Below, one piece after another: positions 3,320-15,534 of a stretch of DNA of 64,000 bases. Numbering within the stretch: the first letter of the stretch is position 1; each line of letters begins with the position of its first letter. The notes beneath the pieces are model-generated. The model did no database searches. It worked only from the letters and a program-made list of their open reading frames with translations, and had not been told where the DNA came from. The translations under genes and the position numbers were made by a program. Source of the DNA: a virus (lineage: Duplodnaviria > Caudoviricetes); IMG/VR virus record IMGVR_UViG_3300014205_000220, positions 4,867 to 68,866 of that record; one strand, 5' to 3'.

Positions 3320-4592
3320 TCAATCTATTGTACCATTGTCTAATGGTTGGTTATTGGTTAAAATCTCACAGTCCATCCAATTCTCAAAATCATTTCCAAA
3401 CAAATGATAAATACTATCAAATTCGTCTGCATCAGGATTCCAAATTGCGGGTGCTGTTTTATTTGTGGTATAAAGCCCATTATCATATTCAAAATCACCA
3501 TCAACCAATTCTATTATTTCACCATCTTCAAAACCGTGTTCATCAGCATAATTTTTGCCCAACTTTATTTGAGTGCCAACAATTAAATTAGCTTCAAAAT
3601 AATTTTTATCAAATTTCATAATTTCAATTCTATTTATACCCTTTAATGTGGTTGGTTAATTAATATTTTCTAATGAATAAGAGCCTAAAACAGCTATCTT
3701 ATTTGACGAATGGTCAAACTTTTCACTTGCTTTATGTAATGCTTCTGTAACGTGTTTTTTAGCGAACTCAATCATCATTTCTGTAGAAGTGGTTTCGTCA
3801 TTTTCTATTAACATTTTATCAAATAATTCTTTTGCTGTTTCCATAATATAAATATTAATCCCTTATAGGGTGTTTGGTTAATCCCATTCTTCTTTGTCTG
3901 CTTGTGTTTCTGCCATTACTGCAATAATTTGCCTTTCACGTTCAGTAAAGTCAAACCAATTTTTCTGCCATTCGTAAGGTACGTAATTTCTCCAATCATG
4001 CACTTTTCCTGACTTATCGAAATCAGGATTTTCTATATCAATTAATTCGGTAAATTTTTCAAAAATATTCATAATTATTTTATTTAATGTTAGGTTGTTT
4101 TAATGCTTTGTTTAAAACTGATTGAGCATTTTTCCAAGCTATCGGTTGTGCTTTTAAATATTGAGCGTCTTTTCCATACTCATCTTTCCATTCTTTAACT
4201 TGAACAAGTTCTTCCAACACTTCAATAGCTTCATTATATCTCTCCAATAGTTCAGAGTTATTAGTTTCAATCGATTCTTTTAAAAACCCGCCCAAAATAT
4301 CTACAAGCCAATGAGCTGAATCATCAGAACCATAAATGACTTCATTTGGATTTAAATTATAACTCTCTAAAAATTCTCTTATATGCTTTGATTCCATAGC
4401 TTATTTATTTTTTTCTATTAATTGAAAGTATGTATTATCAAAATACATAGGATGTACTAAATATTTTCTGCCTTTGTGATAAATCTTAACATCGCAAGGC
4501 TTAATATGACCGTTGCAGTATCTTTCCATATCATCCTCGTCAGGGAATGTCGTTTTGCAAATTGCCATAACTAAATTTTTGTTTGATTCCAT
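3320..4592 (-). CDS. Run of five small hypothetical phage ORFs (3320-3619, 3656-3844, 3878-4072, 4080-4397, 4401-4592)
   Basis: Tightly packed co-oriented ORFs with A-rich leaders, no recognisable motifs. Confidence 0.6.
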
Positions 4593-5326: not shown

Positions 5327-5602
5327 CTATTGTTGCAATTTACGGTCTTGTACAACTTTATTAGCACCTATTAAACTTTCTGTTGCTGCATCAAACCCTT
5401 CTTTGTATGCTTGCAACAACAGTTCGCTTTGCTGCCTAACATGTTGTATAGGTAATAATTTTAAAAATAGTCCCTCCAATTCAGTAGCAACGCTCGGTGC
5501 GTCTGCTGCATCTCCATCAACATCTTTTCTTGGTATCTTACTTACCACTTTGTAGATTTGTTCCCATACCTCGCTTCTTTGTATTCTGTTACTTTGTTCC
5601 AT
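5327..5602 (-). CDS. Cassette 1 hypothetical protein
   Basis: ORF track. Stop abuts the GTTAGGCA core and the frame reads through the R''/L'' arm. Confidence 0.65.
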   Translation of the reverse strand: MEQSNRIQRSEVWEQIYKVVSKIPRKDVDGDAADAPSVATELEGLFLKLLPIQHVRQQSELLLQAYKEGFDAATESLIGANKVVQDRKLQQ

Positions 5603-5666
5603 TTTATTAAGTTTTATCTGTTAATTATTTTTAAAATTACATACCCATACACCCAACCGTTATAGC
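5433..5666 (+). repeat. attC-like site 1 (long loop carrying the 5' part of ORF 5327-5602)
   Basis: R'' 5433-5440, inner arms 5446-5469 and 5626-5650 (near-complementary), R' GTTATAGC 5659-5666. Confidence 0.75.
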
Positions 5667-5672
5667 CAATGC

Positions 5673-5972
5673 CTAAAGAGAGTTCAGTCTATCAATTTCG
5701 GCAGCTATCAATGCACCAGCCTTTTGAAGTTCTCGTACACGATTTTCAGGCGTTCTTTTTAGCCATTTAAGTTCAAAAGGCCATATATGTAAGTGCATAT
5801 CGTTCCCCCATTCATTGTCTATAAAATCAATCGTGTCTTCGGTCATTGCATAATAAGCTGCTGCATTAGCAAGTTCACCTTCTTTATGCTCTGCATCGTG
5901 TTCGGAAGTCCATCCTTCTTTTTCAATTTGTCGCTGCCTTTCTTCGGCAATTAATTCAATTCCAGTTTTCAT
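5673..5972 (-). CDS. Cassette 2 conserved phage hypothetical protein (ERQRQIEKEGWTSEHD family)
   Basis: Motif recalled from many phage proteins, function unknown. Confidence 0.75.
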   Translation of the reverse strand: MKTGIELIAEERQRQIEKEGWTSEHDAEHKEGELANAAAYYAMTEDTIDFIDNEWGNDMHLHIWPFELKWLKRTPENRVRELQKAGALIAAEIDRLNSL

Positions 5973-5996
5973 AATTAAATTTAGTTTGTGGCACTA

Positions 5997-6093
5997 GCTA
6001 TAACAAAGTGTATAGCAAATAGCCTATTAATATTCAGTTTTTAATTCGTTGGTTCGTGCTTCGGCTACTTGCCATACACAAACCGTTGTGGTG
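5997..6093 (+). repeat. attC-like site 2 (97 bp, canonical size)
   Basis: R'' 5997-6004, arms gtgtatagcaaatagcc 6008-6024 / ggctacttgccatacac 6063-6079, R' 6085. Confidence 0.85.
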
Positions 6094-6104
6094 CATTAAA
6101 ACGA

Positions 6105-6392
6105 CACCACAACACGGTATATAAATAATAAATAATGCTAATCAACATCGTGCTTCAAACACTCGCCATTGGTATGTTTTATATATTGGCGTTTAGTCAT
6201 ATTAGCAATCCATCTATCATCCCTACACGCAGGGTTTTTACAATATTTTTGGTTTCCAGAATCCATTTCAAATTCTTCATTGCACCAAATACAGTTCTTT
6301 AAAATACCTGCTTCGCTTATGTTTTCGTGTTTGTGTTGAAAATATCCCATATCGCATTATTTACTATTCATATACCATCTACGTTATAAGCT
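6105..6392 (+). repeat. attC-like site 3 enclosing the complete ORF 6138-6350
   Basis: 23-nt arms 6116-6138 and 6354-6376, complementary at 21 of 23 positions; R' 6383. Confidence 0.8.
6138..6350 (-). CDS. Cassette 3 small zinc-binding protein (inside the attC loop)
   Basis: CIWC...YCKNPAC motif. Confidence 0.65.
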   Translation of the reverse strand: MGYFQHKHENISEAGILKNCIWCNEEFEMDSGNQKYCKNPACRDDRWIANMTKRQYIKHTNGECLKHDVD

Positions 6393-6395
6393 ATG

Positions 6396-6674
6396 TTAAT
6401 CTCCTACTATCAGAAAATCTATTCTGCATTTAGTAACAATGAATTTACCTTCTTTTTCTAATTGATTTCTAACGGCTTTTCGTGCTTTTTCTATATTGGT
6501 AGCACAAACTAATTGAGTTAACTTCATCGGTTCTGAAAAGTTAATTCCATTTCTAATTGAAATTGGCATACTTGCGTAAATATTGTCTTTTTCTTTTTCT
6601 GAATAAAAATATTCTGAATGTGACATATAGTATTTTTTACCAACTGTAGGTAAATTATCATTTAAATCTTCCAT
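6396..6674 (-). CDS. Cassette 4 hypothetical protein
   Basis: ORF fills the space between R' 6383 and R'' 6703. Confidence 0.7.
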   Translation of the reverse strand: MEDLNDNLPTVGKKYYMSHSEYFYSEKEKDNIYASMPISIRNGINFSEPMKLTQLVCATNIEKARKAVRNQLEKEGKFIVTKCRIDFLIVGD

Positions 6675-6702
6675 TTATATTTGTTTTATAAATCAAAAAC
6701 AC

Positions 6703-6839
6703 AGCTTATAACAATCGCTATATTTCAGCTTTAGGTTAGTGTTTAATTTAATGTTCTGTAATTCTTGGTTTAGTCTTTTTCAACCGAAACGCCTTTTGTG
6801 TTTGTTCAGCCGAAATTATAGCGATGGACGTTACAAGCA
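6703..6839 (+). repeat. attC-like site 4
   Basis: R'' 6703-6712, arms 6714-6730 / 6808-6825, R' 6830-6839. Confidence 0.85.
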
Positions 6840-6842
6840 ATG

Positions 6843-7313
6843 TTACACAACATCATGAATAGAAATTCCTCGACCTTCTTTAATGTGATTAAACACATCG
6901 AAATTCCATTCAAGAAACCTTTCAATTATACCAAATTTTACTCCTTTATAATGGATAAAATTGTTTTGAAATTCAATAATATCTTCTTTTGAGTGTTTAA
7001 ATGCGTTGTAATTAATAGGTACGAACAAATTTTCGTTAATGTTTATTTCGTTTGTTAAATCACTTTTTGGTCTAACAATTATTTTAACATCATCAAATTT
7101 TACATCGTATTGATACTCGCCGTTAGCAATAGTCATTTCTTCTTCTCGAAGTTCAACTATTTTGCAATCATTGTGTAATATCTCACGTTCATCGTCAAAA
7201 TATTGAAATAAAAAACTATTAGCCATTGCTATTGATAAATGTTCTAAAGTCAAAACACTGCTTGTAACAGTCGCTTTGTCTAATGGCTGGGCTTGGTTAT
7301 TTTCTGAAATCAT
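6843..7313 (-). CDS. Cassette 5 hypothetical protein
   Basis: ORF track. N-terminus (QPLDKATVTSSV) is encoded by the att arm. Confidence 0.7.
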   Translation of the reverse strand: MISENNQAQPLDKATVTSSVLTLEHLSIAMANSFLFQYFDDEREILHNDCKIVELREEEMTIANGEYQYDVKFDDVKIIVRPKSDLTNEININENLFVPINYNAFKHSKEDIIEFQNNFIHYKGVKFGIIERFLEWNFDVFNHIKEGRGISIHDVV

Positions 7314-7398
7314 AATTTTTAAATTTATTGTTAGTGTATTTTTGTGAAGTCTAGTCTTAAATCGTCGCCACTAGACAAAGTGACCGAACGTTAGCACC
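7259..7398 (+). repeat. attC-like site 5 (loop contains the start of ORF 6843-7313)
   Basis: R'' 7259-7268, arms gtcgctttgtctaatggc 7270-7287 / gccactagacaaagtgac 7367-7384, R' GTTAGCACC 7390. Confidence 0.85.
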
Positions 7399-7402
7399 AA
7401 TA

Positions 7403-7627
7403 CTACTTTAGTGCTTCTAATTCATTTTTTACTTCGCTCCAAACTGTAATAGCAGATGGTGTTTCATCATCGTAAGTGTCCCAATAAGTTTTTGTTGGGT
7501 TTTCTTCCAAAATCTTATCTACAATTAGCAATGCAATCTCAATACATTCATCGTAGAATAAAGGTGCTTTTAAACTTATTTCTTTTAACAAGTTATCTGC
7601 TTTTAATTTCACTTCTTCTTTTGTCAT
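7403..7627 (-). CDS. Hypothetical protein after the last GTT core
   Basis: ORF track. Confidence 0.65.
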   Translation of the reverse strand: MTKEEVKLKADNLLKEISLKAPLFYDECIEIALLIVDKILEENPTKTYWDTYDDETPSAITVWSEVKNELEALK

Positions 7628-14101: not shown

Positions 14102-14197
14102 TTATAGTCGGATATTGTTTATTGGTGATTGAATTTTACTATACCCTCTACGTTTCATTTCCTGAATGAATTTGGTTTTGTGTTCAGACGTGTTCAT
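14102..14197 (-). pseudogene. Internally deleted tyrosine integrase (IntI-like) remnant, 31 aa
   Basis: Manual translation MNTSEHKTKFIQEMKRRGYSKIQSPINNIRL*. The first part resembles an integrase N-terminal SAM-like start and the last part resembles the IntI C-terminal I.SPL motif. It points away from the adjacent cassette array. Confidence 0.55.
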
Positions 14198-14387
14198 GTT
14201 TTTATATTGGTTTTATTAGTGTTTTAAGATGTTGAATACATATAATAGTTATAGTTAATGCCTTACTCGAACGCTTTATAAAAAAGGCACTAACAATAAC
14301 ACCGTGTATAAAGCAGTCTTTAGGTCGTTTCATTTCTGCAATCTCATTTCCTTTCCCGATGAAAAAACAAAAAGCCATTGCGCTTTT

Positions 14388-14804
14388 TTAGTTACTTACG
14401 GTTAATTCCTCTCCCTCAAAAAAATAAAATAGGTTTTGCAATTGATGAACGTATTTTATAAGAAACTCAATATCGCAATTGGCTATTTTGAAAATTTCAC
14501 AATCAAAGACGCCTATTCTTTTGTTTTCCCAAACAAGGCTAAAACTGTTTTCTTTAAATCCTAGTTTCTTTAACCAATCTTCGGTTAAAATTATTCCCTC
14601 AAAACTTTCAAAAATTTCAACGTTTGTATCTTTAGTTTCAATCCAGATTGAATGAGTTGTATATCCAACATAATCTAATAAAACGACTTGGCCTACTGCC
14701 TTATCCATTACTAATTCAGAGTTTTCATAATCCCAATCACATTCAAGGCCTTTCTCATAATTTCCAACTACGTAGTTACCTATTCTTAATTCGTTTGTTT
14801 TCAT
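14388..14804 (-). CDS. Hypothetical phage protein (MKTNELRIGNYV...KYVHQLQNLFY family)
   Basis: Probable start is the ATG at 14804; common Bacteroidota phage motif. Confidence 0.75.
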   Translation of the reverse strand: MKTNELRIGNYVVGNYEKGLECDWDYENSELVMDKAVGQVVLLDYVGYTTHSIWIETKDTNVEIFESFEGIILTEDWLKKLGFKENSFSLVWENKRIGVFDCEIFKIANCDIEFLIKYVHQLQNLFYFFEGEELTVSN

Positions 14805-14808
14805 GTTT

Positions 14809-15090
14809 TTAATTGTAAATTCCTTTTTTTGCATCGCCTAAAGTTTCATACCACAAATCTTTAGTTTCTTCATCAACATTCCACCAAATAATATCTTCTT
14901 TTTCCTTTTCAATTTTTTTAATTTCCTTTTCTGAAAGTCCTTTTTTTAATTCCTCAATGAGTGATAATATTTTTTGATTTTCCATTTTGTTATTAATTTT
15001 TAGAGTTATTACTGTGTCGCATTTTGACATACATATTTGAAAATAACCTCTTTGGTTTCCAATAGTCTTCCATTCGTGATTACATTTCAT
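14809..15090 (-). CDS. Hypothetical protein (probable start MKCNHEW)
   Basis: The track ORF extends to 15177 across the att arm; the first ATG inside the loop is at 15090. Confidence 0.55.
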   Translation of the reverse strand: MKCNHEWKTIGNQRGYFQICMSKCDTVITLKINNKMENQKILSLIEELKKGLSEKEIKKIEKEKEDIIWWNVDEETKDLWYETLGDAKKGIYN

Positions 15091-15194
15091 ATTTAGTCTT
15101 TTAATTGCACTTCTATTTTTTTTTTTGGCTGTTTTGCCGAGTTGATTTTTAGCCCAGACCGCTTCATACACGATCAACGTTGTAGGTAATAAGC

Positions 15195-15437
15195 CTACTC
15201 ACTTTCTGCTACAATTGGAGATACATAAACAACAATGCTGTCGTAGTTTTCCAATTCTGTCGATATATGATGGCAAACATTTTCAACTAAAAATGCCCTT
15301 GTACCAAACTCGTTTTTCCGCTCCCAATTATATGGTAACATCCATATCGTTTCCCCAATTCTTGGCACATAGTTTTTTGTCGATGTTCCAATTGATTCTT
15401 CAGAGTTTTCTAATTCTACAATAAATTCAATATTCAT
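15195..15437 (-). CDS. Cassette 7 hypothetical protein
   Basis: ORF between R' 15179 and R'' 15482. Confidence 0.7.
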   Translation of the reverse strand: MNIEFIVELENSEESIGTSTKNYVPRIGETIWMLPYNWERKNEFGTRAFLVENVCHHISTELENYDSIVVYVSPIVAESE

Positions 15438-15481
15438 AATTTCAGTTTTTAGTTTTTAGTTTTCAAATCCGTAGGCTTACA

Positions 15482-15534
15482 TACCTACAACAATGTATAA
15501 ACGGCATTAAAACGACCGTTTATACTCACCGTTA
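15482..15534 (+). repeat. attC-like site 7 (minimal, 53 bp)
   Basis: TACCTACAAC-aat-GTATAAACGG-cattaaaacga-CCGTTTATAC-tcacc-GTTA. Confidence 0.85.

Follow-up and report, generated by a model that had tools for sequence, protein, structure and literature searches.

Can a complete gene reside inside the loop of a recombination hairpin, rather than in the cassette body that such hairpins normally join? This question was raised by a locus in a 64,000-nucleotide stretch of the viral record IMGVR_UViG_3300014205_000220 (hereafter the window), in which an earlier note had claimed that a cassette with a body of only 29 bp carries its gene entirely between the inner arms of an attC-like site, so that cargo can sit in the loop instead of the body. 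The complete record is 68,866 bp long with direct terminal repeats and no tyrosine recombinase domain (no PF00589 match). The window is AT-rich, with small minus-strand ORFs followed by large structural genes, encodes Erf, NinG, GIY-YIG/NUMOD3, two T5orf172-type proteins and a DNA methylase, and has nucleotide matches among cultured phages only to Flavobacterium phages.

In order to determine whether the described anatomy is real, the region from 5400 to 7450 was first read directly, revealing a chain of alternating units. In this chain, a GTT core is followed some distance on by its exact reverse complement ending in AAC (the body), after which comes an imperfect inverted repeat that ends at the next GTT (the site). 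The features of the locus and of the related elements in the window are collected in Table 1. The two arms of the site enclosing the gene are 91% complementary (21/23), the highest complementarity among the 25 longest inverted repeats listed for the window, and on the minus strand the two mismatches become G·T pairs. The predicted DNA fold of that strand pairs all 23 positions and, beside them, the 9-bp outer hairpin (z = -3.96; plus strand z = -3.74). Anchored at the independently defined cores, the arm alignment scores 34 against a maximum of 29 in 20,000 random AAC/GTT pairs, and is the best of all AAC...GTT pairs lying 40-1200 nt apart in the window. The ORF fills 213 of the 215 nt between the arms, its stop codon overlapping the arm by one base. 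The observation is confirmed, although the 29-bp body is not inert filler, but a conserved family hairpin that is often exchanged independently of the gene block.

Table 1. Coordinates of the loop-cargo cassette and related features in the window
Coordinates	Strand	Feature	Observations
5660..6004		Ordinary body with a 99-aa ORF	Recurs in locus L012
5998..6090		Neighbouring ordinary short site	86 nt between cores, no ORF
5998..7392		Array 1	Four consecutive sites
6085..6113		Outer hairpin (the 29-bp body)	GTT core plus 6 nt, 11-nt loop, 6 nt plus AAC core; perfect 9-bp stem (6085-6093 and 6105-6113 exact complements); read on the minus strand, the loop is the family's standard cap TCGTTTTAATG
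6111..6113		AAC core on the plus strand (GTT on the gene-sense strand)	Inner boundary between the outer hairpin and the loop-bearing site; in the survey a second, less frequent break point
6114..6115		Short spacer (2 nt) between core and arm	Family-wide 1-3 nt on this side
6116..6138		Inner arm (3' arm on the gene-sense strand)	1 of 23 positions varies among four copies
6138..6350	-	Cargo gene	70 aa, CxxC...CxxxxC zinc-ribbon motif
6354..6376		Inner arm (5' arm on the gene-sense strand)	GTATAT-type box of the family and two conserved G·T positions
6377..6382		Long spacer (6 nt) between arm and core	Family-wide 5-6 nt on this side
6383..6391		GTT core on the plus strand (AAC on the sense strand) and start of the next unit	Cassette boundary; exact reverse complement at 6704-6712; in the survey the universal break point
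6383..6712	-	Neighbouring ordinary cassette body	92-aa ORF between complementary 13-15-nt ends; moves alone in loci L009 and L010
14102..14197	-	31-codon remnant of the family's Xer-like recombinase gene	
14238..14250	-	Partnerless end-of-array motif (attI-like)	Directly after the empty outer hairpin of array 2; one match against 0.11 expected
14248..14304		Empty outer hairpin of array 2	
14248..15533		Array 2	
15505..15515		11-nt loop of a short site in array 2	Identical to the loop of the 6085-6113 hairpin

The enclosed ORF is a real gene of unknown role, probably a small nucleic-acid-binding zinc ribbon. Six homologues at 64-99% identity keep all four cysteines, and the four DNA copies that could be read are all intact with an excess of synonymous over replacement change per site. 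No Pfam hit was obtained for this or the other ORFs among nine from the cassette region, a PHROG search gave only a weak match covering the zinc-ribbon part of an HNH family, and an AlphaFold model from a 7-sequence alignment had a mean pLDDT of 61, too poor to use.

We next asked whether the gene travels with its hairpin. While a protein search of the genome contigs with the 70-aa sequence found nothing, searches with the protein alignment recovered a viral contig and a TARA contig sharing the same context (L003 and L005), two short metagenome contigs (L006 and L007) and one 56-kb contig (L008). BLASTN of these loci against the whole window gave a single match each: 6111-6387 to L003/L005 at 92.4%, 6094-6376 to L006 at 90.5%, 6110-6376 to L007 at 83.9%, and the ORF only to L008 at 75.7%. 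In the first three contexts, which are otherwise unrelated, similarity stops at, or within a few bases of, the AAC and GTT cores and the neighbours differ on both sides, arguing against homologous recombination through shared flanks. In L008 the homologue (67%) has no arms and overlaps the next gene, making it an ordinary operon gene. The arms are paired in 97.8% of cells in four distinct copies, with one pair changed on both sides and one changed from G·U to A·U, whereas sliding the partner by 1-3 columns drops pairing to 30-52%. The arms vary at 5 of 46 positions and diverge less than the synonymous sites of the gene, which differs between the window and L007 at 38 of 213 positions. For this particular block there are, however, only four distinct copies and one compensatory change, and a search with the exact 5'-arm pattern found only the L003 contig again, providing no case of the same arms around different cargo. 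Ordinary bodies behave alike, as the similarity of the 92-aa and 99-aa ORF bodies to their recurrences ends at, or within about 13 nt of, the two cores, the neighbouring sites are otherwise different, and the two ends of each body have changed together. Body and site units can therefore reassort, with the cores as the joints. Both outcomes that the earlier note had named as counting against its reading, a lack of conserved arm pairing and movement of the short body without the gene, came out the other way, and its interpretation is supported.

In order to establish whether this layout is a one-off, the outer hairpin was surveyed in IMG/VR. The features at 6085-6391 match the survey consensus. 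The hairpin occurs with co-varying stems in at least 120 contigs, the two six-base stretches being fully complementary (6/6) in 99 of 124 copies and 5/6 in 22, with many different stems, and is always flanked by a 3' arm ending 1-3 nt before the GTT and a 5' arm starting 5-6 nt after the AAC. The same loop caps short sites in this window, in L006 and in many Bacteroidota genomes, where short-loop cassette arrays also occur, although about half of the 17-mer hits in the genome contigs were chance matches in unrelated GC-rich genomes and were ignored. As naive whole-window scans for AAC...GTT hairpins or complementary core pairs gave hundreds of chance chains in this AT-rich DNA, seeded walks with a decoy control were used instead. 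An upstream partner arm was found for 57 of 92 seeds against 10 of 276 decoy GTTs, and most such sites have loops of 180-900 nt holding a co-oriented ORF whose stop lies 15-24 nt before the GTT. Walking outwards from the seeds yielded 52 unique long-loop sites with a co-oriented ORF, 1 with a reversed ORF and 72 sites of 81-179 nt without an ORF, in addition to 59 bodies with a co-oriented ORF and none with a reversed one. Because the survey was seeded on empty outer hairpins, the share of loop cargo is biased upward. The arms of long-loop and short-loop sites are equally stable.

Taking each site together with the body that follows it on the gene-sense strand, the ORF lies in the loop only in 46 cases, in the body only in 46, in neither in 29 and in both in 2, against 18.7 expected (Fisher p = 2e-11). 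The opposite pairing shows no exclusion, with 15 having both against 10.6 expected. Among contigs that share flanks, the outer hairpin stays with the upstream site in 13 pairs and never with the downstream site alone (0 pairs, against 8 where the downstream site is shared but the hairpin differs). The cassette is therefore site plus following body on the sense strand, which on the plus strand of the window is body then site, corresponding to the third cassette of the earlier note at 6085-6383, and its universal boundary is the AAC 5' of each site. A second, rarer break at the GTT also exists, as eleven surveyed pairs share the upstream arm but not the hairpin stem, and this very block is followed by three different bodies in the window, L006 and L003. 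A one-strand, one-cleavage integron model does not predict this second break point, and we cannot explain it. Regarding the strand that folds, the arm mismatches in 65 well-paired sites are 85 G·T, 3 T·G and 1 C·A, plus 14 others, against 1,154 matches (88 G·T against 1 A·C in total), and the sense strand is more stable than the antisense strand (p = 5e-14). The longer spacer lies 5' on that strand.

A candidate enzyme was found beside the arrays. Only nine of 50 records with the hairpin carry a tyrosine recombinase, including 2 of the 10 that are at least 90% complete. The recombinase of L003 is 281 aa and scores best against the XerA-type model (197 bits, cut-off 220), while its match to IntI (145 bits, cut-off 265) is in two pieces and skips the IntI-specific region, positions 181-240 of the model. 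Homologues at 33-41% identity (265-283 aa) start 33-70 nt after the AAC of a terminal hairpin in seven independent viral contigs, co-oriented with the cargo, with a conserved motif following the AAC (AAC-TATNATATRT) and no partner arm beyond the gene; seven more lie within 0.3-2.5 kb. The link between enzyme and sites rests on adjacency only. This phage has no intact tyrosine recombinase, but the end motif occurs once in the window, and the nearby 31-codon ORF joins an N-terminal piece, in which residues 17-22 match residues 25-30 of the L003 enzyme, to a last 12 residues matching the C-terminus of the recombinase of another contig, L154 (9/12 identical, 12/12 similar). This phage once had the enzyme and now holds orphan arrays.

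In total, we regard 6085-6385, with moderate confidence, as one gene cassette of an integron-like, hairpin-based gene-exchange system common in phages of Flavobacteria-type (Bacteroidota) hosts. A cassette is one long stem that separates two loops, the stem consisting of an outer perfect helix containing the GTT/AAC cores and, after an unequal spacer, an inner imperfect helix. Usually the gene lies in the loop closed by the outer helix and the inner helix closes a short non-coding loop, while here the roles are swapped. Both layouts give the same dumbbell once the cassette is a single-stranded circle, so one short loop is enough to nucleate the stem; the hairpin with the short loop would form first and the stem would zip up from it whatever the size of the other loop, which would explain why two long loops are rare. 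Recombination itself is inferred, as no recombination product was observed, and recombination of this 288-bp site has not been shown. The Xer-like enzyme, acting in trans here, is proposed to cleave at the AAC 5' of each folded site on the gene-sense strand and to excise or insert cassettes as integron integrases do. In the array, excision of a loop-cargo cassette would need pairing across 215 nt, which is plausible on the abundant single-stranded DNA of replicating phage. It is possible, though somewhat less likely than not, that phages of marine and freshwater Bacteroidota carry their own analogue of the integron, consisting of a small Xer-like recombinase, a partnerless capture site and cassettes that fold on the coding strand into a two-loop dumbbell, in which site and body would be interchangeable positions of one structure and sites of 200-1300 nt would be functional.

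Of the alternatives, an unlikely one is that the arm-gene-arm block is a self-contained module bounded by terminal inverted repeats and moved as double-stranded DNA, by a site-specific recombinase or transposase acting on the cores or by nicking at hairpin bases followed by Erf/NinG-type repair, so that no folded 288-nt site would ever form and a gene in a hairpin loop would be only a formal description. Both cores of the block are break points, bodies and sites reassort independently, and the phage encodes Erf, NinG, GIY-YIG and T5orf172 proteins. However, arm mismatches that are almost all G·T are not expected for duplex inverted repeats, the arms of long-loop sites are indistinguishable from those of short-loop sites, the exclusion rule and the one-sided linkage of the outer hairpin define a two-part cassette instead of free modules, and the fixed cargo orientation shows that inversion between the repeats is not happening. 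Slightly less probable still is that the arms and small hairpin act in RNA, as long-range stems in the early polycistronic transcript that bracket each ORF for processing or stability, like RNase III sites between phage early genes or the stems flanking rRNA, with gene shuffling as a by-product. The strand bias fits an RNA structure equally well, all cargo ORFs lie on the strand that folds best, the hairpins are intergenic with a conserved 11-nt loop, and this phage lacks an intact recombinase. In contrast, an RNA role does not require that similarity between unrelated contigs stop at, or within a few bases of, the invariant triplets with no shared flanks, the two ends of bodies up to more than 1 kb apart co-vary, the loop-or-body exclusion follows cassette boundaries, arrays end at a partnerless site beside a tyrosine recombinase gene, and no Rfam family matched at gathering score, with only chance-level hits at E up to 5. 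The two roles are not mutually exclusive. A chance or decaying inverted repeat, for which only the AT-rich DNA and one other anchored pair scoring 30 or more in the window can be cited, is contradicted by the placement of the arms exactly at independently defined cores, their score above the null maximum, their conservation with a compensatory change in three other contexts and the dozens of analogous sites.

Finally, the locus was compared with known systems. As in integron gene cassettes, the arrays consist of units bounded by AAC/GTT cores (invariant in all four copies, and in every surveyed unit by construction, although the flanking four bases fit the RYYYAAC...GTTRRRY consensus only loosely), with imperfect inverted repeats and an asymmetric spacer, complementary cassette ends as in a circularised cassette, one strand that folds better than the other, and a partnerless site at the end of the array next to a tyrosine recombinase gene that reads away from the array. 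Here, however, the site is 275 nt from core to core, or 288 nt with the full boxes, and its terminal loop is a 70-codon gene under purifying selection, where classical sites generally span about 57-141 nt with a non-coding loop. There are no extrahelical bases, the asymmetry being carried by spacer length and fixed wobble positions instead, the outer helix is 9-18 bp rather than 7, and the elements are carried by lytic-type phages. By strand bias and spacer length the gene-sense strand corresponds to the recombined (bottom) strand of classical attC sites, so that the genes are inverted relative to classical cassettes; on the gene-sense strand the site precedes the body. The enzyme is Xer-like and below the IntI cut-off, and no TIGR02249 match over the cut-off was found in 10 Bacteroidota genomes that carry family sites. 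Integron tools and models assume a short non-coding loop, and as attC finders probably cap site length at around 200 nt, such cassettes would be systematically missed if cargo can sit in the loop; natural loops of 200-1300 nt also make the idea that loop length limits site folding testable. What is new here is the loop-or-body exclusion, a simple structural rule of one short loop per cassette for a system that appears widespread in Bacteroidota phages and moves methyltransferases and many small early genes.

The arrays of this window, with consecutive sites and only a recombinase remnant, also resemble CALINs, the attC clusters lacking an integrase that were reported in virulent phages including Polaribacter phage P12002L (Qi et al. 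2023, PMC9892861). P12002L_attC1 of that work is a short-loop member of this family, with the same cores, spacers and 11-nt loop, lying between methyltransferase genes. It was treated there as an ordinary short attC site of classical integrons and was the one site of six whose integration by IntI1 was not confirmed, which fits a different cognate enzyme. Loop cargo, the outer hairpin and the Xer-like enzyme are not described there, nor in any other paper found in our literature searches, which were not exhaustive. Like the PeSL (promoter-early stem-loop) modules that flank mobile small ORFs in T4-type phages (Arbiol et al. 2010), the hairpins are stem-loops between small accessory phage genes that mark where genes are swapped between related phages. 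PeSLs, however, probably work through homologous recombination between about 50 nt of conserved sequence that includes a promoter, whereas here unrelated neighbours share only the 3-nt core, the stems co-vary and a recombinase is linked. Shufflons and invertons likewise combine a tyrosine recombinase with segments bounded by inverted repeats, but cargo orientation in this family is fixed in both loops and bodies, and the repeats therefore do not drive inversion.

A small (265-283 aa) XerA/XerD-like tyrosine recombinase gene, found in L003, the contig that shares the 70-aa gene block, and next to the terminal hairpins of contigs L204, L136, L199, L096, L154, L097 and L168, starts 33-70 nt after the last hairpin of cassette arrays. 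The gene follows a conserved partnerless motif. This is the likely enzyme and capture site of the family. In the window, the end-of-array motif is accompanied by a 31-codon ORF in which an N-terminal piece is fused to the last 12 residues of the family recombinase. This ORF is an internally deleted enzyme gene, with the deletion apparently having occurred between two short identical stretches. In addition, sequences resembling tRNA 3' ends directly precede some terminal hairpins, being located just upstream of the hairpin in contigs L095, L167 and L170. ARAGORN calls no tRNA at these positions, and the sequences may be attachment-site fragments.

The window also contains a second loop-cargo cassette, in which an empty 57-bp outer hairpin is followed by a site whose arms enclose two ORFs, the same architecture as that observed around the 70-aa gene. 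L003 seems to hold another loop-cargo site as well, around a 146-aa ORF, with an empty 64-bp outer hairpin carrying a non-standard loop residing between this site and the shared gene block. In L007, a short metagenome contig that carries the block, a partial duplicate of the block's 5' arm, with its own AAC, lies about 30 nt upstream of the real one. The 11-nt loop TCGTTTTAATG is conserved in both kinds of empty hairpin while the stems co-vary freely, as seen in the window, in L006 (a second short metagenome contig with the block) and in at least 120 IMG/VR contigs. This loop could be a protein-binding cap, a folding nucleus or a scar.

Coordinates of additional features related to the hairpin cassettes in the window and in other contigs
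Sequence	Coordinates	Strand	Feature
Window	6094-6104		Conserved 11-nt loop
Window	15505-15515		Conserved 11-nt loop
L006	1296-1306		Conserved 11-nt loop
L006	1339-1349		Conserved 11-nt loop
Window	14102-14250	minus	End-of-array motif and internally deleted recombinase gene
Window	14238-14250	minus	End-of-array motif
Window	14102-14197	minus	31-codon ORF
Window	14248-15180		Second loop-cargo cassette
Window	14248-14304		Empty 57-bp outer hairpin of the second loop-cargo cassette
Window	14388-14834		First ORF enclosed by the arms of the second loop-cargo cassette
Window	14809-15177		Second ORF enclosed by the arms of the second loop-cargo cassette
L003	5338-6183		XerA/XerD-like tyrosine recombinase gene
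L003	3390-3905		Apparent further loop-cargo site around a 146-aa ORF
L007	1225-1270		Partial duplicate of the 5' arm of the block
Window	7266-7392		Short site
L001/L002 (Flavobacterium phages filifjonk and mumin)	3501-3612		Sites related to the short site of the window (window 7282-7393)
L333 (Polaribacter phage P12002L)	29974-30077		Short-loop family site
L333 (Polaribacter phage P12002L)	30849-30964		Short-loop family site

Sites of the family were also detected in bacterial genomes and in cultured phages. Bacterial chromosomes or their prophages, represented by the Bacteroidota genome contigs L286, L249, L322 and L316, hold arrays with bodies of 250-1750 bp and sites of about 123 nt from the same family, and no IntI was found over the cut-off in those genomes. 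Among cultured Flavobacterium phages, filifjonk and mumin contain sites that are 77% identical to a short site in the window, and their arrays carry several DNA methyltransferase genes. Finally, the cultured Polaribacter phage P12002L carries short-loop family sites with the standard loop between methyltransferase genes, one of which is the published P12002L_attC1, a site whose integration by IntI1 was not confirmed.
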